DNA of 64,000 nt from Stegostoma tigrinum (Eukaryota): the NCBI RefSeq assembly GCF_030684315.1, contig NC_081359.1:41054470-41118469 (forward strand). Direction: 5' to 3'. Below the pieces are notes generated by a model. That model did not search any database, was not told where the DNA came from, and saw nothing but the letters and a program-made list of their open reading frames with translations. Below, piece after piece: positions 1 through 59,100 of this stretch. Every line of letters starts with the position of its first letter. Position 1 is the first letter of the stretch. Position numbers and translations under genes: made by a program.

Positions 1-186
1 TCCCTGAGGTTGGTCCGGAGGGAGGAGGGTAACTTCTTCAGGTTAGGCATCCCTGGAAGAGGCTTCGCAGTGAGGTTAAAATAGTATCAGAGATAATGGG
101 AACTGCAGATGCTGGAGATTCCAAGATAATAAAATGTGAGGCTGGATGAACACAGCAGGCCAAGCAGCATCTCAGGAGCACAAAAG

Positions 187-218
187 CTGACGTTTCGGGC
201 CTAGACCCTTCATCAGAG
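187..218 (-). ncRNA. Minimal type I hammerhead ribozyme motif, first of 8 copies (repeats every 420 nt; predicted cleavage after minus-strand C at 189, 609, 1029, 1449, 1869, 2289, 2709, 3129)
   Basis: Minus strand reads cu-CUGAUGA-a-GGGU-cuag-GCCC-GAAA-CG-UC-ag: both conserved core boxes, stem II hairpin, palindromic ACGU helix III, GUC triplet. Minimal hammerheads of this form are known from Penelope-like elements. Stem I is only 2 bp locally; activity untested. Confidence 0.75.
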
Positions 219-470
219 AGGGGGATGGGGGGAGGGAACTGGAATAAATAGGGAGAGAGGGGGAGGCGGACCGAAGATGGAGAGTAAAGAAGATAGGTGG
301 AGAGGGTGTAGGCAGGTGCTGAGAAAGGTGATGTGGCTGTGGTACCTGGTTTGCTTCAGGACATGGTCGAGCAGTTTCAAGGCCGAAGAGATTACAAGAG
401 AGTTGCAATGGGAGAGAGATTCCCTGAGGTTGGTCCGGAGGGAGGAGGGTAACTTCTTCAGGTTAGGCAT
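213..470 (-). other. 85-aa ORF in each array unit (7 complete copies): Penelope-like N-terminus fused to a proline-rich tail read from the pLTR; translation unproven
   Basis: ATG-initiated MPNLKK...RYHSHITFLSTCL contains an HxxFLxxC motif like Penelope ORF N-termini; the TGA stop (213-215) lies within the hammerhead CUGAUGA box. Confidence 0.45.
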
Positions 471-3400
471 CCCTGGAAGAGGCTTCGCAGTGAGGTTAAA
501 ATAGTATCAGAGATAATGGGAACTGCAGATGCTGGAGATTCCAAGATAATAAAATGTGAGGCTGGATGAACACAGCAGGCCAAGCAGCATCTCAGGAGCA
601 CAAAAGCTGACGTTTCGGGCCTAGACCCTTCATCAGAGAGGGGGATGGGGGGAGGGAACTGGAATAAATAGGGAGAGAGGGGGAGGCGGACCGAAGATGG
701 AGAGTAAAGAAGATAGGTGGAGAGGGTGTAGGCAGGTGCTGAGAAAGGTGATGTGGCTGTGGTACCTGGTTTGCTTCAGGACATGGTCGAGCAGTTTCAA
801 GGCCGAAGAGATTACAAGAGAGTTGCAATGGGAGAGAGATTCCCTGAGGTTGGTCCGGAGGGAGGAGGGTAACTTCTTCAGGTTAGGCATCCCTGGAAGA
901 GGCTTCGCAGTGAGGTTAAAATAGTATCAGAGATAATGGGAACTGCAGATGCTGGAGGTTCCAAGATAATAAAATGTGAGGCTGGATGAACACAGCAGGC
1001 CAAGCAGCATCTCAGGAGCACAAAAGCTGACGTTTCGGGCCTAGACCCTTCATCAGAGAGGGGGATGGGGGGAGGGAACTGGAATAAATAGGGAGAGAGG
1101 GGGAGGCGGACCGAAGATGGAGAGTAAAGAAGATAGGTGGAGAGGGTGTAGGCAGGTGCTGAGAAAGGTGATGTGGCTGTGGTACCTGGTTTGCTTCAGG
1201 ACATGGTCGAGCAGTTTCAAGGCCGAAGAGATTACAAGAGAGTTGCAATGGGAGAGAGATTCCCTGAGGTTGGTCCGGAGGGAGGAGGGTAACTTCTTCA
1301 GGTTAGGCATCCCTGGAAGAGGCTTCGCAGTGAGGTTAAAATAGTATCAGAGATAATGGGAACTGCAGATGCTGGAGATTCCAAGATAATAAAATGTGAG
1401 GCTGGATGAACACAGCAGGCCAAGCAGCATCTCAGGAGCACAAAAGCTGACGTTTCGGGCCTAGACCCTTCATCAGAGAGGGGGATGGGGGGAGGGAACT
1501 GGAATAAATAGGGAGAGAGGGGGAGGCGGACCGAAGATGGAGAGTAAAGAAGATAGGTGGAGAGGGTGTAGGCAGGTGCTGAGAAAGGTGATGTGGCTGT
1601 GGTACCTGGTTTGCTTCAGGACATGGTCGAGCAGTTTCAAGGCCGAAGAGATTACAAGAGAGTTGCAATGGGAGAGAGATTCCCTGAGGTTGGTCCGGAG
1701 GGAGGAGGGTAACTTCTTCAGGTTAGGCATCCCTGGAAGAGGCTTCGCAGTGAGGTTAAAATAGTATCAGAGATAATGGGAACTGCAGATGCTGGAGGTT
1801 CCAAGATAATAAAATGTGAGGCTGGATGAACACAGCAGGCCAAGCAGCATCTCAGGAGCACAAAAGCTGACGTTTCGGGCCTAGACCCTTCATCAGAGAG
1901 GGGGATGGGGGGAGGGAACTGGAATAAATAGGGAGAGAGGGGGAGGCGGACCGAAGATGGAGAGTAAAGAAGATAGGTGGAGAGGGTGTAGGCAGGTGCT
2001 GAGAAAGGTGATGTGGCTGTGGTACCTGGTTTGCTTCAGGACATGGTCGAGCAGTTTCAAGGCCGAAGAGATTACAAGAGAGTTGCAATGGGAGAGAGAT
2101 TCCCTGAGGTTGGTCCGGAGGGAGGAGGGTAACTTCTTCAGGTTAGGCATCCCTGGAAGAGGCTTCGCAGTGAGGTTAAAATAGTATCAGAGATAATGGG
2201 AACTGCAGATGCTGGAGATTCCAAGATAATAAAATGTGAGGCTGGATGAACACAGCAGGCCAAGCAGCATCTCAGGAGCACAAAAGCTGACGTTTCGGGC
2301 CTAGACCCTTCATCAGAGAGGGGGATGGGGGGAGGGAACTGGAATAAATAGGGAGAGAGGGGGAGGCGGACCGAAGATGGAGAGTAAAGAAGATAGGTGG
2401 AGAGGGTGTAGGCAGGTGCTGAGAAAGGTGATGTGGCTGTGGTACCTGGTTTGCTTCAGGACATGGTCGAGCAGTTTCAAGGCCGAAGAGATTACAAGAG
2501 AGTTGCAATGGGAGAGAGATTCCCTGAGGTTGGTCCGGAGGGAGGAGGGTAACTTCTTCAGGTTAGGCATCCCTGGAAGAGGCTTCGCAGTGAGGTTAAA
2601 ATAGTATCAGAGATAATGGGAACTGCAGATGCTGGAGATTCCAAGATAATAAAATGTGAGGCTGGATGAACACAGCAGGCCAAGCAGCATCTCAGGAGCA
2701 CAAAAGCTGACGTTTCGGGCCTAGACCCTTCATCAGAGAGGGGGATGGGGGGAGGGAACTGGAATAAATAGGGAGAGAGGGGGAGGCGGACCGAAGATGG
2801 AGAGTAAAGAAGATAGGTGGAGAGGGTGTAGGCAGGTGCTGAGAAAGGTGATGTGGCTGTGGTACCTGGTTTGCTTCAGGACATGGTCGAGCAGTTTCAA
2901 GGCCGAAGAGATTACAAGAGAGTTGCAATGGGAGAGAGATTCCCTGAGGTTGGTCCGGAGGGAGGAGGGTAACTTCTTCAGGTTAGGCATCCCTGGAAGA
3001 GGCTTCGCAGTGAGGTTAAAATAGTATCAGAGATAATGGGAACTGCAGATGCTGGAGATTCCAAGATAATAAAATGTGAGGCTGGATGAACACAGCAGGC
3101 CAAGCAGCATCTCAGGAGCACAAAAGCTGACGTTTCGGGCCTAGACCCTTCATCAGAGAGGGGGATGGGGGGAGGGAACTGGAATAAATAGGGAGAGAGG
3201 GGGAGGCGGACCGAAGATGGAGAGTAAAGAAGATAGGTGGAGAGGGTGTAGGCAGGTGCTGAGAAAGGTGATGTGGCTGTGGTACCTGGTTTGCTTCAGG
3301 ACATGGTCGAGCAGTTTCAAGGCCGAAGAGATTACAAGAGAGTTGCAATGGGAGAGAGATTGATACTAGTTTTCAGTAGATGTGAGCTCTGTGCAGTGAT

Positions 3401-4069: not shown

Positions 4070-4313
4070 GGCTTTTTTTTAGAAACAAAAGAATAATGAG
4101 TGGGCCAGGTCAGGCTCACACCAAATCTGAGAGGATTTGGGTTTTTCTTTCAGTCAGTTGGTGGTTTTTACTGGCTGCTGAGCTGAAAGTTTGAGTTCTT
4201 GATTGCTAGAGTGAAGACTTAGAAAGAGGACTTTCCTCTTTGAAAGCGGAAGGGGCAGACTGCTTTCTCAATTTGTCTATTGGACTGGTCAGAGATAGCA
4301 CGTGAGAATAGTA

Positions 4314-4414
4314 GACAATAAAGTGTGAAGCTGGATGAACACAGCAGGCCAAGCAGCATCTCAGAAGCACAAAAGCTGATGTTTCGGGCCTAGACCCTTC
4401 ATCAGAGCCTTCAT
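4314..4414 (-). mobile_element. Short Penelope pLTR insertion carrying a hammerhead motif, same family as the array
   Basis: Close match to array unit positions ~125-218; flanked by the 15-bp direct repeat CACGTGAGAATAGTA (4299-4313, 4415-4429). Confidence 0.85.
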
Positions 4415-11463: not shown

Positions 11464-13316
11464 TGGTAATTTATTCATGTTCTGTAATGCAATATAGTTT
11501 TGAAATACAAAGTCAAGCAGGTTTTGTACAGGTGCAGTAGGCTGTGCAGTGCAGTCAAAGATATGATGATGTGGCTTCTCACCTAAATTAAAGAAGCAAA
11601 AATTGGAAAAACAAACCAATATTGAGTTATTTAAGTTGTTAAACCATTATTACTGGTTGACATTTATTTATATCTGAACTGCAAATGCATATTTTTGCAT
11701 TTTGTGCTTTTGCAAGTTATTCATAAATCTGTTAGCCCAGAATAAGGCAATATTTCAATACAACCAGAATAAAATGAAGTTAAATTAGTCAAGGGTGCAA
11801 TTATTTATTTCTTAGACAAGAGCTCTGCACTTAAGCCTCTCACGTAGTTCCTTTCTCTATGATTGAATCATATTATGAACTGTAAAAGAATAACTCTGTA
11901 TCTGACTGTGCCAATAGTCTTTTTTTTCTGTATTTTCACAATGAAATTGGCAATCAAATTGAAAGTATTGAAATTTTTCTCATCTATTTACATTGCAGCT
12001 ATACTGCCAAGACAGGCATGTTTGTCTTATTCAAACCATTGTCCTAAACAGTATGATCTATTGCTGAAATAATATAAATGATAAATATCAAGAGTTGCAG
12101 GGGTGGAGTTGTGTGGGCACAGGTTTGATTCCAATATGAAAGTCTTCAGTAAGTGTAATGCTATTCTAGCATATAAAAGTGCATGTTACCACAGAAGCTT
12201 AGAACCCTTGGAGATTTCATTGGCACCATTGACTGGATAAAGAGTGTGAATTGTATTATGCCAACAGCACAAAATTTGATCCCTGTTTCGGCTAGGGTAA
12301 GTTGGCATCTGCCTCTTTGCTCTATTTGTGGTAGAGATCATGGTGCTGCATGGTGGATCAGCCTTTGAGCAGAAAACAGAATAAAAAAGAATATTTTTTG
12401 CAAGTAGAAAGGAAAGGACGAAATTCTAATTTCCAGACTCAAATTTAAGTGAAAAATAAGCATAAAAGTCAACATACAAAACTATAAATTGAGGTTTATA
12501 ATCATGGCAACCACTGTGGTACATGTAGTGATTGCAACAAGGTCAGCTAGGCGGACTTCATTGAATAAGAGTTCCCTGATCAAGGAAGCCTGGCTGGCAA
12601 ATAAAAATGGGAGTGTCAGATATCCTGTTCATTCTGACAGCTGGCTTATGTGAGAGGTGGAACAGTGTCAAGGACTCTCCTTATGTAAGTAAAGGGCATC
12701 TTGGTGATTGGATACTGGCCTCTATAGAGTTATTTCAGTGATCACAAAAGAAAAGCACACTTCTGAAGAAATTCAATCACAAGTGGACATCTTTGAGTTG
12801 GAGTAAGCATTTCTGGCATCATGTCATTATTTCAGAAGCTTAATTCGTTTGATTCAGCCATTGAAGATGGGGTCCACTATTTGGAAAGAATGCATTATTT
12901 TTTTCTAGGCCAATGACAGCTTTGGACCCATTGCTTTTTTTGGTTATTTGGAGCCTGACCTTTCCTCAGGCATCAGACACGAAAACCTTTCAAAAGTTGG
13001 TGCGTTTAGTTAAGGAATATTATGACTCCAAGCGTGCTCTAATTAAGAGATGCTGTCAGTTTTGCTTGGCAATTCAAGAACCAGAGAAACCTATATCACA
13101 ATATTTGACTAGATTAAGAAAGCTAGCAGAGGAACATGACTTTGGTTTAACCTGTAATGAGATACTAAGAGACCATTTGATATGTGGGATTAATGATGCA
13201 ACTATGTAAAAGCTCTGGGCTTCAAACTACAGCTGGCTTTATCATTGGAAAATGCAGCAAGTATAGCAAAAATTTGTAGGATATTCCAATAGAAGTTGAC
13301 ATTTTTGGCCACCCTA

Positions 13317-24524: not shown

Positions 24525-24732
24525 GAGATAACAAGATTTAGAGCTGGATGAACACAGCAGGCCAAGCAACAAAGCTGATGTTGTGGGCTTAGACCCTTCT
24601 TCAGAAATTTAAGGGTCTAGGTCTGAAATGTCCGCTTTCCTGCTCCACTAATGCTGCTTGGCCAGCTGTGTTCATCCAGCTCTACACCTAGTTATCACAG
24701 ATTCTCCAGCATCAGCAGTTCCGACTATCTCT
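24525..24732. mobile_element. Fold-back Penelope pLTR element centred on the hammerhead core
   Basis: TAGACCCTTCTTCAGAAATTTAAGGGTCTAG centre with ~80-bp imperfect inverted arms; ends in ACTATCTCT. Confidence 0.85.
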
Positions 24733-25356
24733 GGGTCTATAGACACCTGTAGATGAGAATGAGGTGCATGGAGATATCAAACTAAAATGCCCCAGCACCA
24801 TTTTGTAAGTGTAATTATAGTACAAAATTAAATGCATTATTCAGAGAATGTCAAAATAGGAACAGTTGACCAAGTGCTTCAAAAACATGACAAGAAGAAA
24901 CAGGTAGGATGCAAACACACAGCTGTAACTGGTGTAAGATATCATGGATAACAGAATAAGAATATCCAGTGCTGTATATCTACCAAAAATGCCAGGTTGT
25001 CTATACTTAATGAGGCCATTCTGTTTTTATTATTTTTGCTTACAATGGCAAGAAAGTTAAATTAATGTTGCAACTAGCACTTGTGCATACAACAGTAAGT
25101 GTACTGCTTTCATTGTGTTGACATCACACGACTAAAACAGATATTCCACCAACATTTATGAATGTGGTCAACAACATGATAATGAATAGATTTTATTTGT
25201 CATGGTGATCAAGACATCAATATTAGCCTGCACGCCAGTATAAAGTCTCCTGCACTTCTGGGAAATAATTCCATAGGATTATTTGAAAAGGTAGACAGGG
25301 GCACAGTTTATTTGAAACAGTGTGTCACTGATAGTCTAATACTGAAACTCAACGTT

Positions 25357-25455: not shown

Positions 25456-27329
25456 TTCTCATTTTCATGCATTACCCCCAGTCCCAGGAGTGGAACTTGA
25501 ATGTGAAACCACGTGACTCAGTGCAGTATGCTACATATGGAGCTGATAGTGGAAGACACCACAGAAACAGATTATATTTTAAACAAGTACAAAAAAACGG
25601 CCAAACTGCAACTATTTACTTAAATCGCCCTGAATTCACCGTAGTTTTAAAAAATATTACTAGTTCTAAAATGCTCAGCCAAATACATGTGAATAGTTTT
25701 TGCTGCTTCCTCAATGGTAGCTTTAATATGTAAAGTGATTTAACAGTAAGTTTCCAAAATAGAAATCTTTCAGCTTCTTCCTGAGCTTCAATATACTCAT
25801 TATAATCTCAATTAGGCTTCCTGTTAAAAACCACCAACTCGAGAATACTCTGTCACAATTTAGCAAAAAAAAGGATCAACTGCAATTTCTGTTCCAAATC
25901 AAACATTAATACTCTCTTCAAGACTGTGATAAGCCTTCCTCTGACAGTCTCCTCTGTATTGCCTCATAGAATGAGCTATTCATGGTTGGGAGTTTATCTC
26001 CTACCCAATATTCAAACAACAGCCACACTTGTTTCCACTTGTTCTTGCCATATAGAGTTCTTTATATCTCAAACCAATTTTCTGCTCTTGTCCAGTCTTT
26101 TCACACCTGTAATTCGTGATATTCTCTATCACTAACAGTTTTGCATTTCCCAGTCCCAACTGTATGTATCACAATTGATGCCTTCTGTCTCTAACTTTGT
26201 CTCCACCAGGAAATTCTGACAACTGTTTCTTTGGGTGAAAATGCAATTAGTTCTCAACTATGTGAAACTGTTGACACATTGGAAAATTTCTCCATTCATG
26301 CAGTATTCTCCATTATTTCTGATCCCTGCAGCATTGATGGCACTAGCAAATCAGCTTCCTTTGCTTTATCTTTCAACATTCTCTATTCCACTGTTCCCCT
26401 TGTGGCAACTTGGTCTACTCCAAGTCACCCTTAAAAGCCCCCTTTGGTGGCACACCTTTCTATAGTCACAAACAGTTCAAATCATGTATATAGTCAAATG
26501 ATGTCCTGAAGCTTCCGACATGTTTTGCCTCATCACCTGCTCCATTTACTCTCCCATTACTCAAACCTTCCTCCAAAGCCATAACAGTAATTGGGCAGAT
26601 CAGTCCTTATGACACAGCATTCAATGTTGACTGTTCCACCCTGCCTTCCTATCTGCACTTTTTCCTCCAAATGATTACTTATGTATTCAAACAATTGGAT
26701 GCTCCTTTGATTTTCTCCCCATTTAGGAAAACTGAAGGTAAGTTATTGGAGCAAATTAATTTCCAGTAAACCAAGAAAATTCCAGGAGGATTAGCATAAT
26801 CAAGTTACTGTGCTTATGCTAGAATCTTGCAAAGCTTAAAACAGCAAAACAAACTATTTTAGAGCCAGCACTATAAAACAAGTCTATCATCTTTCCTTTG
26901 ATACATTTGTTTGACATCACTGTTTATGATTTTCCTTCCAAATCATTATAACTCAGATGAAGTCACATGTTTACCAAGAGCTCAACCTGATGATGTCAAG
27001 CATTCCCTGCACTGCCACAACCTAAATACTTTGTTCACAGGTCCCTCACTGTCAAGACAAACACCAGCTATGTCCCTTTCTCTTCATTCCCATTACCTCG
27101 GTTGTTGCAACTAATTTACAAGTTACTTAACTTCTGAAACCTCAGACAAAATAAATCAAGTCGAGACACTTTCTACTTGTGGTTGGTCTGGCCATTCACT
27201 TGGCATAATCTTGACCCTAACACTCACTTTATTTCATAGTTGCTATAACTCCCACATCATTGAAACATAACATCTATGATGTAGTTGTAAAAATATCATT
27301 ATTCACAGAAGTAACTGGTAACTTCTGTC

Positions 27330-27890
27330 ATAGCAGGGGGATTGAGCTTAAGAGTCGTGAGATCTTGTTGCAGCTCTATAAAACTTTGGTTAGACCGCAC
27401 TTGGGATACTGCATCCAGTTCTGGTCGCCCTATTATAGGAAAGATGTGGATGCTTTGGAGAGGGTTCAGAGGAGGTTTACCAGGATGCTGCCTGGACTGG
27501 AGGGCTTATCTTATGAAGAGAGGTTGACTGAGCTCGGACTTTTTTCATTGGAGAAAAGGAGGAGGAGAGGGAACCTAATTGAGGCATACAAGATAATGAG
27601 AGGCATAGATAGAGTTGATAGCCAGAGACTATTTCTCAGGGCAGAAATGGCTAACACGAGGGGTCATAGTTTTAAGCTGGTTGGAGGAAAGTATAGAGGG
27701 GATGTCAGAGGCAGGTTCTTTACAGAGTTGTGAGAGCATGGAATGCGTTGCAAGCAACAGTTGTGGAAGCAAGGTCACTGGGGTCATTTGAGAGACTGCT
27801 GGACATGTATATGGTCACCGAAATTTGAGGGTGCATACATGAGGATCAATGGTCAGCACAACATCATGGGCTGAAGGGCCTGTTCTATGT
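27330..27890 (+). mobile_element. Relatively young CR1-type LINE 3' fragment (RT C-terminus open for ~130 codons)
   Basis: ORF 27260-27733 LQLYKTLVRPHLGYCIQFWSPYYRKDVDALERVQRRFTRMLPGL...TRGHSFKL. Confidence 0.93.
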
Positions 27891-31330: not shown

Positions 31331-31602
31331 AGAAAATCAAGCACCAGGCAGAAAATTCTTATTGAAGCAGTTAGGAACAGCATGGTTACAGATGTTATAT
31401 ACTCCCACTAGTTTATATGTACAGGATCTGAGAACACAGCTGGGCTCCATCTAGGCAAATTGCTTTCCATGGGTCCATTTTGAAGGTGGCCAATCTGATG
31501 TCTGCAGCAGTGATTGCAGGTACAGATGCACCAAGGCTGTTCAGACAAGTGACAATTCACTGATCTTTAGTTCAAAACATACTATGCATCAAAAAAAAAA
31601 CC

Positions 31603-32520
31603 ATGGAGAGAGGCTGGATGAACACAGCAGGCCAAGCAGCAGGAAAGCTTGACATTTCAGGTCGGGACCCTTCTTCAGAAGTGGGGGTGGGGGAAGAAGG
31701 GGATTCTGAAATAAATAGGGAGACATGGGGGATATAAAAGATGGATAAAGGTGGAGAGGGTGAGAGGAGACAGACGACAGTTCAAAACAGGCAGGGTTAG
31801 AGCCAGTGAAGGTGAACATTAGTGGGGAGTTTTTTTTTTGGGGGGGGGGGGAAAGAGAAGAAGGGAGAAAAAAATAGGTCAGTCCAGGGTGGTGGTGGTG
31901 GCGGCTGGGATGAGGTTTGGGTAGGGGACGGAGGTAGGAGGAATGGTTAGGGAGGCAGGCCTAGCTGGGCTGGTTTTGGCATGTGGTCAGGGGAGGGGAA
32001 ATTTGGAAGCTTGAGGTCCACATCAATACCCTTGGGCTGCACAGTTCCCAAGTGAAATATGAGGTGTTGTTCCTGCATCTTTCAGGTGGTGTCACTGTGG
32101 CAATGCAGGAGGCGTGGGAGAAGTGAAATGGTTTGCAACTGGTGAGGTGTAGTTGTTTGTTGTGAATAGAGCATAGTAGTCCACAACGCAGTCCAAGCCT
32201 CCATTTGGTTTCCCTGACAGAGGAGGCCACAACGGGAACAGCGGATGCAATACATAACATTGCCAGATGCGCAGGTGAACATTTGCTTGATGCGAAAAAT
32301 CTTCCTAGGGCCTGGGATCGGTGAGGTAAAGGGGCAGATGCAGCACTTCCTGGGGTTGCAGGGAAAAGTGCCGGGGGTGGTGGGGCTGGAAGGGAGTGTG
32401 GAGTGGACAAGGGAGTCACAGAGAGAGTGGTCCCTCCAGAAAGCACATGGTGGGGAGGGGAAAAAATACCTTTGATAGTGCGGTTGGACTACAGATGGCA
32501 GAAAATGTCAGAGGATGATG
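31603..32520 (-). mobile_element. Penelope-like element 3' part: GIY-YIG endonuclease relic, 3' UTR and hammerhead-bearing pLTR
   Basis: FTCASGNVMYCIRCSRCGLL and ETKWRLG motifs (ORFs 32082-32282, 31961-32446); CTGAAGAAGGGTCCCGACCTGAAATGTC on the minus strand at ~31651-31678. Confidence 0.92.
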
Positions 32521-56371: not shown

Positions 56372-56472
56372 CAAAAGCTTTTGTGCTCCTGAGATGCTGC
56401 TTAGCCTGCTGTGTTCATCCAGCCCCACACTTTATCTTGGATTCCCAGCATGTGCAGTTCCCATTATCTCTG
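56372..56472 (+). mobile_element. Short Penelope pLTR fragment of the array family
   Basis: AGCTTTTGTGCTCCTGAGATGCTGC...CCCATTATCTCTG matches the reverse complement of unit positions 88-188. Confidence 0.85.
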
Positions 56473-57282
56473 AATGCTGCATCTGTTTTAATCTTATTTA
56501 AAAGTGTCATGCTCTTTATTGGCCTGGCAGAAAGCACAGTACCTCTCAACCTCTCTTCAATTTTAAAAAAAAATAGGGACAGAATATTTCTTAAGGTCTA
56601 ATATTATCACAAAACTAGTACTGAATGAATGGCTTGCCTTATGAGGAAAGGCGAGTTAGGTTAGGCCTCTATCCTCTAGAGTCTGGTGACTTAATTGCAT
56701 CAGTCCGAAGAGGACTTGTTTGGATATGGAAAAGATGTTTCTGTGGGAGAATGTAGATCTAAGAATGCTTTACGTATGAGATTCTTTTGTTTTTAACCTG
56801 AGAAAGTTGAAGGACTCTTGACATTCCTTTCCACAAAAAGCTAAGAATATAGAATCTTTAGATATTCTTAATGCTGAACAAGGTAGATGCTGATTTTACC
56901 AACAAGCGTTTTGGTTTATATAAGAATCTAAAAGTGAGGTTCAAATCTGATCAGCCATGATCTTGGTGGAGGTTCCAAGTGATACATTGCCTACTGTTGT
57001 TCCTTCTTCCTGAGTTCAAGAGTTCTAATCTCATTTGTAGCTAAGTGCCATTGTCAGAAAGCATTTTAAGATTTGTCAAATATTAGTATGTTATGTTTTG
57101 TGGTGTACACATATCAATTCATTAGGAAAGTGGGGCCTATTCTATTAGAACATATCAGCCCATGGACCTCCAGGATCAATATTACCAGGAAGTAAAGATG
57201 ACTTTTCAACATGTTCTTTTTTTAAAAAAAGTTTAGGGATTAAGCTGGGTAATAATAAAGCAGAGTCAACATGGTGGAGTAA

Positions 57283-58089: not shown

Positions 58090-59100
58090 GAAAGTTGCGT
58101 CAACTGCTTCCCTGGTGTTAGCCACACTAAATTATACAGATCCATTCAAGGTGACTAAATCGATGGAAGCGATATGGGTGTTGGTATTATCTATGAAGAA
58201 GGGTCTAGGCCCGAAACGTCAGCTTTTGAGCTCCCGAGATGCTGCTTGGCCTGCTGTGTTCATCCAGCTTCACACTTTGTTATCCTGGATTCTCCAGCAT
58301 CTGCAGTTTCCATTATCTCTGGGTATTGTACTCTCAAGAATACAAGATAGACCTATTGGGGAATTTTCCCAAAAAGCTGAATTATTATTAACAGAAACAT
58401 TCCACTATTGAGAAATAACCCTTGATCTTGTTTTTGGCATTACATTTCAACATTTATTATCAGTAACGTGACAGACAATAATGATCATAACCCAGTGAAG
58501 TGGAGACATTTAGAAAGACTATTTCCAGATTGATTGCTTAGACGAAGGTTATTACAGCCAGCCAATCTGAAACTTACACATGCAGCAGGTTGAGAGACAT
58601 GTTGTTCAGCAACAGGAATAAACTGGCTGAAATAAGCTGTAGTAGTGAATGTCAGCATGCTTACAAACAATGTATACACATTGTAGTCTTACTTCAGTAT
58701 ACGCCATCTTTGTATAATGATGCATTTTTCTAAAAAAGGGGAGCTGTCATGCTGCTAGAGATCATTTTATCCTTTGTAAAGCACTGATTAAAACACTTCA
58801 GACTTTGTTTTTGTTTAATAGCCTGAATGTGGCCAGCTTCAGTAAATAGCTCCTGGCTGCTACTGAATTGGACAACTGTACATGAGAACCCTATATCTGA
58901 ATTTGCCTTTTGTCAAGGTGTTTATGGGATGTTACTAATTAACTGTGCCAATATAATATTAACCAATATCTTAATTTTTCCAATAGAGCTGGAACTCTAA
59001 ACACACTCTTCAGTTGTATTTTAAACAGCATTTCAAATAAATGGTGTTTTGCTCAATTAGGTTTGACCATTTGCTTTGCATCTGGAACATGGCTTCACAA
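57690..59100 (+). mobile_element. Decayed Gypsy RT/RNase H relic, polypurine tract and 3' LTR
   Basis: VMSFGMKN, LVINL, VLRFLALSRFY and LVLATLNYTDPFKV motifs; AAAAAAGGGGAG tract at 58732-58743 followed by TGTCA at 58745. Confidence 0.75.
58189..58321 (+). mobile_element. Short Penelope pLTR insertion of the array family inside the Gypsy relic
   Basis: TGAAGAAGGGTCTAGGCCCGAAACGTCAGC...CCATTATCTCT; GGTATT direct repeat at 58183-58188 and 58322-58327. Confidence 0.88.

Follow-up and report, generated by a model that had tools for sequence, protein, structure and literature searches.

Introduction

Tandem hammerhead ribozyme repeats have been reported in 20 of 31 vertebrates, including one chondrichthyan with a mean unit of 363 bp, and were linked to the terminal repeats (pseudo-long terminal repeats, pLTRs) of Penelope-like elements (PLEs); cleavage was seen in one of nine Xenopus dimers (10.64898/2026.07.22.740005). 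The retrozymes of coral, mussel and axolotl that lack long terminal repeats (non-LTR retrozymes; PMC7229834), and newt satellite 2, consist of tandem units of a few hundred nucleotides with type I hammerheads that would need a dimeric fold. The retrozymes of PMC7229834 carry canonical hammerheads with tertiary contacts, occupy many loci, have a GC content below 50% and give highly self-paired circles on blots. Tandem and inverted arrangements, tails and deletions at microhomologies have been described for PLEs (PMC8557442, PMC3846280), and the tail pattern has been tied to two reverse transcriptase (RT) start sites, with internal RT starts in vitro (PMC11167929). Minimal PLE hammerheads are marked by an extra base after position 9, a G10.1-C11.1 pair and a palindromic remnant of helix III (PMC4209133). 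Concatemers can also be made from linear RNA, as DRT2 and telomerase do (PMC12039810).

We analyzed an array of 420-bp tandem units, each with a minus-strand hammerhead, at the start of a 64,000-nucleotide stretch of the Stegostoma tigrinum genome (contig NC_081359.1; hereafter the window). The array is a real feature and a further case of a PLE-derived hammerhead tandem; the retrotransposon behind it is very abundant and has left many such by-products. It is a readable case for two questions: how such tandems are born, and whether the minimal PLE hammerhead cuts in vivo.

The preprint calls a non-LTR retrozyme any run of two or more successive units that carry a complete type I hammerhead, and we found this in 8 of 8 window units. 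Like the metazoan non-LTR retrozymes described there, the array is PLE-derived, has few units and has a period near the chondrichthyan mean; the array or its kin may be among the listed families. An initial annotation of the window had known of no such unit in sharks; given the chondrichthyan genome in that preprint, such units are not new to cartilaginous fish. Unlike those retrozymes, the array can be traced to its origin at the nucleotide level (terminal repeat plus start of the open reading frame (ORF), connected by a jump join), and it forms a single locus with no family. It resembles the coral, mussel, axolotl and newt repeats in unit size and hammerhead type, but differs from the retrozymes of PMC7229834 in its minimal hammerhead, 51% GC, poorly paired predicted circle and single locus. 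It departs from the fuller description of a retrozyme in mobility, hammerhead type and circle structure. Calls of retrozymes from tandem hammerheads alone will include single-locus by-products of this kind.

Structure of the array and its parent element

Positions are given in an element coordinate, p, where p 1 is position 4261 of locus L028 and the element sense is the minus strand; the window position is 733 − p + 420n. The initial annotation had described eight almost identical 420-bp units, each with a minus-strand hammerhead, and this held: Tandem Repeats Finder reported positions 1-3361 with a period of 420, 8.0 copies and 99% matches, and the motif is present in all eight. The extent of 1..3361 is right for the window, but eight units are not the whole. 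Retrieved with its neighbouring DNA, the full array (G000:C6:41052879-41057830; 4,952 bp) comprises 11.8 units with 12 joins, and its own 3' end, at p 223 in the tail site of the family, lies upstream of the window. Of the eight window units, units 3 and 5 have an A>G change at their position 118; there are no other differences. A third variant site lies upstream, making three across the 4,952 bp. One contig spans the right boundary of the array, with only 29 letters inside it. That the assembly over-expanded a short tandem is scarcely credible: the units are near-identical and we saw no independent long reads, but the three variant sites, the clean ends with a possible target-site duplication and sister arrays of like construction but other periods all speak against it.

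Each unit corresponds to p 1-425 of a PLE, with CCTAC at p 421-425 doubling as p 1-5, and about 3.2 kb of the element is skipped. The origin from a pLTR proposed in the initial annotation is therefore correct for the terminal repeat part but incomplete, as the unit also has the first 54 ORF codons. The unit is non-autonomous and has no protein of its own, since the frame stops after these codons. Its GC content is 51.4%. Identity to young autonomous PLE copies is 99-100%. The proposal of a young tandem unit that derives from a PLE and bears a minimal type I hammerhead is right.

Open frames of about 1,090 aa are present at loci with parts of the unit; frames above 1,000 aa were observed in L020, L023, L026, L027 and L028. 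The L028 copy has a single ORF of 1,088 aa that matches RVT_1 (E 3e-5) and, at its C-terminus, GIY-YIG (E 0.0015), both below the Pfam cut-offs. Among 443 homologues of its protein, RT was found in most of those listed and GIY-YIG in some; the named relative closest to it, at 77% identity, comes from Chiloscyllium punctatum, and a shark host is accordingly likely. By eye, a C-x4-C-x2-C motif precedes the GIY motif, which is the Neptune/Nematis criterion of PMC8557442. The parent also shows the canonical PLE features of a pLTR, a 30-40-bp tail, head-to-head pairs and partial tandem insertions. Judged from its predicted protein, the parent is a young autonomous PLE with RT and GIY-YIG. Because several copies keep open frames of more than 1,000 aa, the family is young and likely active.

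This parent is similar to canonical endonuclease-bearing PLEs, which combine an RT and a GIY-YIG domain at the C-terminus with a hammerhead in the terminal repeat, and which show two 3'-end clusters about 35 nt apart, head-to-head pairs and partial tandems (PMC8557442, PMC3846280, PMC11167929). Unlike canonical PLEs, the array repeats its unit 12 times over, and this unit leaves out about 3.2 kb of the element.

Origin of the array

All genome-wide counts cover one assembly, whose contigs carry labels such as G000:C6. When the join of the C6 array (the array in the window) was searched for genome-wide with two mismatches allowed, 12 of 12 matches lay inside this array, and no further array of the same unit was found. 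Two sister arrays have joins of their own. A 429-bp array (L012:3901-6777; G000:C4:40.08 Mb) within a 12-bp target-site duplication has five joins in one arm and one in an inverted arm; all its units are identical, its long arm ends at p 125-127, and its join is private (6/6 matches at its own locus). A 362-bp array (L256:1606-3020; G000:C1:49.66 Mb), part of a compound insertion with a 15-bp target-site duplication, has four blunt, identical joins, likewise private (4/4). Since the C6 join and both sister joins are each single-locus, no re-copied unit family was seen in the assembly searched. The initial annotation had proposed such a retrozyme family and had named a single array in the genome as a result that would refute it; a single array is what we found. 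As the join exists at one place only, the array was likely made within a single insertion rather than by spreading as a ribozyme element.

Another join, 423|-84, was found at nine places and on several subfamily backgrounds. A spreading clade with this join was rejected by the approximately unbiased test (p = 2.4e-8; 11 rows versus 103, with the bootstrap not fully settled, over 273 columns). Joins therefore recur de novo. Two loci 3 kb apart, L200 and L201 (G000:C2:131.257-131.260 Mb), share this join and a variant and group together in the tree; they may represent a single second-round copying event, and are the best candidate seen for such copying of a short unit.

We surveyed jump-back joins across the family using two motifs, and found them to be routine. 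The p 354-377 motif had 1,874 matches at no more than one mismatch, and 92 loci were sampled in order from the exact ones. By script, 52 of these jumped back (51 without L162, removed by hand), 31 reached the edge of the fetched DNA, six were of other kinds and three were unaligned. The p 246-270 motif had 3,599 genome-wide matches; in the first 30, where joins were counted by eye and two rows are one duplicated segment, 26 jumped back, with donors at p 297-506. A donor cluster at p 378-456 was discarded as an artefact of the sampling motif, as 21 of 26 donors lay at or below p 377 with the upstream motif. Join positions are BLAST ends against one natural reference copy, and some inserts are subfamily differences. 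Nearly every sampled jump-back locus has its own join, often repeated. Acceptors often lie around p 6-13 and donors around p 423-428, so the C6 join, which may be read as 425|6, is typical. Repetition within one insertion is common: at least two identical joins in one arm were present in 5 of the 92 loci (L064, L072, L160, L169 and L182), and also in L200, L240, L256 and L258. Splicing was rejected as the origin of the joins: the C6 join fits an antisense GT-AG, but just 2 of 64 simple joins do, and none of the 64 fits sense back-splicing. Separately, L251 and L253 (G000:C1:19.04 and 19.09 Mb), 53 kb apart, carry the same insertion and neighbours, as a segmental duplication or an assembly duplicate.

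The joins themselves, both unique and repeated, indicate that such tandems are born in the course of insertion. On a slender balance of probability, we think that the PLE RT looped back on its own linear RNA and reiterated 420 nt within one insertion. Target-primed reverse transcription would prime at a nick and start at p 223 of the PLE RNA; the RT would run to p 1-6, realign at p 421-425 (CCTAC) on RNA within the same particle, and repeat the loop several times. At least two joins would have been needed at insertion, because an insertion from p 312 to p 223 with one join alone would contain no repeat on which to recombine. Unequal exchange or conversion would duplicate units afterwards. Some later DNA-level copying is indicated by the variant common to units two apart, which had no counterpart in 58 family matches elsewhere. 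Such a process would work like DRT2 and telomerase, which make tandem copies of one RNA segment by realignment on a linear template (PMC12039810); unlike these systems, the array has no dedicated non-coding RNA and no product function, and would be a retrotransposon side reaction.

Several features of the joins appear to be signs of linear templates. Arms halt at the acceptor position in L015, L048, L234, L245 and L248, as do arms at p 93-99. Where a join leads onto the major 5' end (p 88-99) or onto p 125, the site of the cut, extra bases (chiefly A or G) were seen in 12 of 17 cases; elsewhere, 51 of 82 joins have short overlaps of a few bases. A middle piece occurs in 11 joins and ends at p 1300-1314 in ten and at p 1366 in one. 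Frequent passage through this piece, which can pair with p 347-391, hints at another RNA site in the transposition particle. The predicted helix between p 347-391 and p 1267-1306 (−32.3 kcal/mol) fits the middle pieces, but other regions paired equally well or better in a windowed scan, so that it is a lead only. The loci with a middle piece (element p 1266-1314; piece ending at p 1300-1314) are L050, L051, L141, L147, L156, L164, L169, L176, L177, L195 and L255. An extra G just before p 90-95, sometimes after A's, was observed at joins in L016, L053, L066, L070, L139, L148 and L153; it would fit a capped RNA 5' end slightly upstream of the hammerhead.

Other observations weigh against looping on a linear RNA. 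In L013, L169, L196, L255 and L256, complex or blunt joins recur without a single change, either in the two arms or among the repeats. Such exact recurrence is easier to account for with an RNA circle formed beforehand, or with copying at the DNA level, than with fresh jumps. Joins differ between arms in L072, L193 and L262 only, where mutation could account for the difference. The C4 array ends at the hammerhead cut (p 125-127), the end expected of a circle that was nicked or a multimer that was cut, and L200/L201 are possibly one re-copying. The shares of RT-made and later DNA-duplicated units are not separable from sequence, a single assembly was searched, so that a donor may have been lost or unfixed, and join positions depend on BLAST ends as noted above.

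A rival origin is a PLE RNA fragment (about p 6-425) that was ligated de novo into a closed circle, away from the hammerhead cut and lacking any donor in the genome, around which the RT rolled. Circle templates have been proposed for PLE tandems (PMC4209133), and a circle accommodates the exact match, between arms and among repeats, of joins that are blunt, made of three parts or extended by added bases, as well as the identity of all C4 units and the termination of the C4 arm at the cut site. We nevertheless regard such a circle as unlikely, given the arms that halt exactly at the join position, the short overlaps at most joins and the absence of splice signals (0/64 in the sense direction). 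We know of no ligation chemistry for such RNA ends, and counted this against it as well.

DNA-level copying could also have played the larger part, with a two-join insertion growing to 11.8 units mainly via unequal crossing-over or slippage, as minisatellites grow. The authors of 10.64898/2026.07.22.740005 prefer this route in their discussion; the private variant common to units two apart would fit it, and two-join insertions are far commoner than long arrays. Little time is left for such growth, however, as the 4,952 bp contain only three variant sites and match the youngest copies at 99-100%, and arrays of four and five joins, almost variant-free, lie within target-site duplications. Two joins at insertion are required even so, and we consider this route decidedly improbable.

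The hammerhead and its probable cleavage in vivo

The hammerhead core begins at p 97, and the predicted cut is at 124|125 in element coordinates, which agrees with the cut after GUC between window positions 609 and 608 (+420n) given in the initial annotation. All eight window units have CTGATGAAGGGTCTAGGCCCGAAA on the minus strand and read CUGAUGA-A-GGGUcuagGCCC-GAAA-CG-UC. The loose motif CTGATGAN{10,30}GAAA had 12 matches in the window versus 1.69 expected, with a shuffle maximum of 6. The scan with hammerhead models that had been proposed as a check was negative: an Rfam search of the window gave no hammerhead match at the gathering score, nor at E ≤ 10. Helix I has 2 bp, helix II has 4 bp and helix III is absent (palindromic ACGU). 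The marks of a minimal PLE hammerhead are present: an intact core, the extra nucleotide after position 9, G10.1-C11.1 and the palindromic helix III remnant.

Among 164 family matches, the first helix II pair is G-C in 128 and G-U in 26. Helix II pairs are retained in 93-98% of the matches, and changes are nearly all one-sided, partly from CpG decay. In 121 of the 164, U-C occupies the third pair of helix I, which argues against a canonical long helix I with loop contacts. The natural 36-mer hammerhead has a predicted −11.4 kcal/mol, but the fold is not the active one.

The CpG within the hammerhead is decayed to CA or TG at window positions 4378, 11015, 17588 and 31652, as the initial annotation stated. 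Its intactness in the array is less special than was supposed there: the CpG-intact 31-mer has 89,060 exact copies in the genome, and the dispersed copy at window position 58209 also retains it. A 28-mer of the terminal repeat has 229,059 copies. The intact CpG of the array hammerheads marks youth only, and the array hammerhead is an ordinary PLE ribozyme of the family, passively carried.

We then considered the ends of family copies. A first tally of 5' ends was discarded as biased because its loci had been selected via the hammerhead. The tally used here covers 192 fragments with at least 88% identity, out of 276 found, and excludes such loci. The 3' ends form two clusters, at p 186-192 and p 221-229. 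An old head-to-head terminal-repeat pair at window positions 24526-24733, with 3' ends at p 189 and p 225, is a typical stump insertion of the family. The 5' ends form a cluster at p 89-98 (41/192) and a spike at exactly p 125 (6/192), with none at p 122-124 or p 126-128. Genome-wide, the pattern for copies starting at p 125 had 3,494 matches versus 495 for a control two bases downstream. Inspection of 20 rows confirmed that the copy truly starts at p 125 in 18 (15 of 16 insertions), among them single arms, as well as arms with a partner that ends at another position. As p 125-128 (AGCT) is a palindrome, a control with ACGT-centred pairs was made. In the first 92 Mb of C1 (0-92 Mb), there were 20 AGCT-centred head-to-head pairs (by eye, first 100 rows) versus two ACGT-centred ones; the latter number 34 genome-wide. 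In the window, a solo terminal-repeat fragment with 90% identity (56376-56473) starts exactly at the predicted cut.

The spike at p 125, the 3,494 versus 495 matches and the 20 versus 2 pairs indirectly support the proposed use of the predicted cut site: the family hammerhead is likely cut in vivo, and the copies piling up at p 125 would be a cleavage footprint. This concerns the family, not the array. We infer that a few per cent of the family template RNAs would be cut and that most stay uncut. The excess of copies starting at the cut contrasts with the anole PLE, for which PMC11167929 reports no reads at the hammerhead cut and cleavage that was dispensable in vitro. Neither this excess nor birth at insertion was found in the literature searched, which covered few subscription papers.

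Cleavage in the family bears on whether the array could be a retrozyme copy, as the initial annotation envisaged: a donor with two hammerheads would have been transcribed and cut to 420-nt monomers, which were ligated and re-copied at this locus. Amphibian retrozymes operate in this way (PMC7229834), the unit retains both RT start sites and about 200 nt downstream, and L200/L201 are maybe one re-copying. Yet no donor or daughter was seen for the three arrays tested in the one assembly, minimal hammerheads cut poorly even as dimers (PMC4209133), and eight of nine Xenopus dimers stayed uncut (10.64898/2026.07.22.740005). The predicted circle is also poorly paired. Its minimum free energy of −67.5, against −74.1 ± 6.4 for shuffled sequences (z = +1.0), with 40% of bases paired, does not bear out a highly self-paired circle, and the probability of helix II in the circular fold is about 0. 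Nor does the join lie at the hammerhead cut; that cut did not make the C6 join. We judge this origin very unlikely. Divergent reverse-transcription PCR, put forward as a check, is unable to distinguish circular RNA from linear transcripts of the array.

A wider reading, offered tentatively and with less than even chances in our estimate, would extend these results beyond the locus. The PLE RT, a sister of telomerase, would have telomerase-like repeat addition on its own linear RNA, jumping back by a few hundred nucleotides and placing concatemers in the genome, and animal non-LTR retrozyme arrays would be born with neither a circle nor a hammerhead cut. This genome would then hold some thousands of such births, plus thousands of copies ending exactly at the cut as a genomic record of in vivo cleavage.

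Other features of the window

Table 1. Coordinates of array features in the window (unit features are given for n = 0)
Feature	Window position	Strand	Remarks
In-window section of the 420-bp tandem array	1..3361	-	Whole array starts 1,591 bp upstream of the window
Join between units, where p 421-425 of the body equals p 1-5 of the terminal repeat	308..312	-	CCTAC, 5-nt microhomology; alternative reading 425|6; same in 12/12 joins
PLE body start, p 227-425	308..506	-	First Met at p 263 (window 470); ORF codons 1-54, frame then enters terminal repeat and stops
PLE 'tail' stretch, p 186-192 to p 221-229	504..547	-	Bounded by two 3'-end clusters of family insertions; compare PMC11167929
PLE terminal repeat copy, p 1-226	507..732	-	99-100% identity to young autonomous copies
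Minimal type I hammerhead	607..638	-	CU-CUGAUGA-A-GGGU cuag GCCC-GAAA-CG-UC^AG; predicted cut between 609 and 608 (+420n)
A>G variant	958..958	+	Same as at 1798, absent from intervening unit; 0/58 family matches elsewhere
A>G variant, identical to 958 variant	1798..1798	+	From unit comparison
5'-truncated end of the insertion (p 312) + TGAT	3361..3364	+	TGAT also closes left flank: possible 4-bp target-site duplication

No host exons were recognised among 24 stop-to-stop frames of at least 110 aa, which were read by eye only, without a database search. By eye, the frames at positions 27221-27733 and 12865-13209 look like the end of a long interspersed nuclear element RT and a piece of a Gypsy gag, respectively. 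The decayed 3' part of an older PLE copy, with remnants of an endonuclease-like frame and a terminal repeat, lies at positions 31589-32507.

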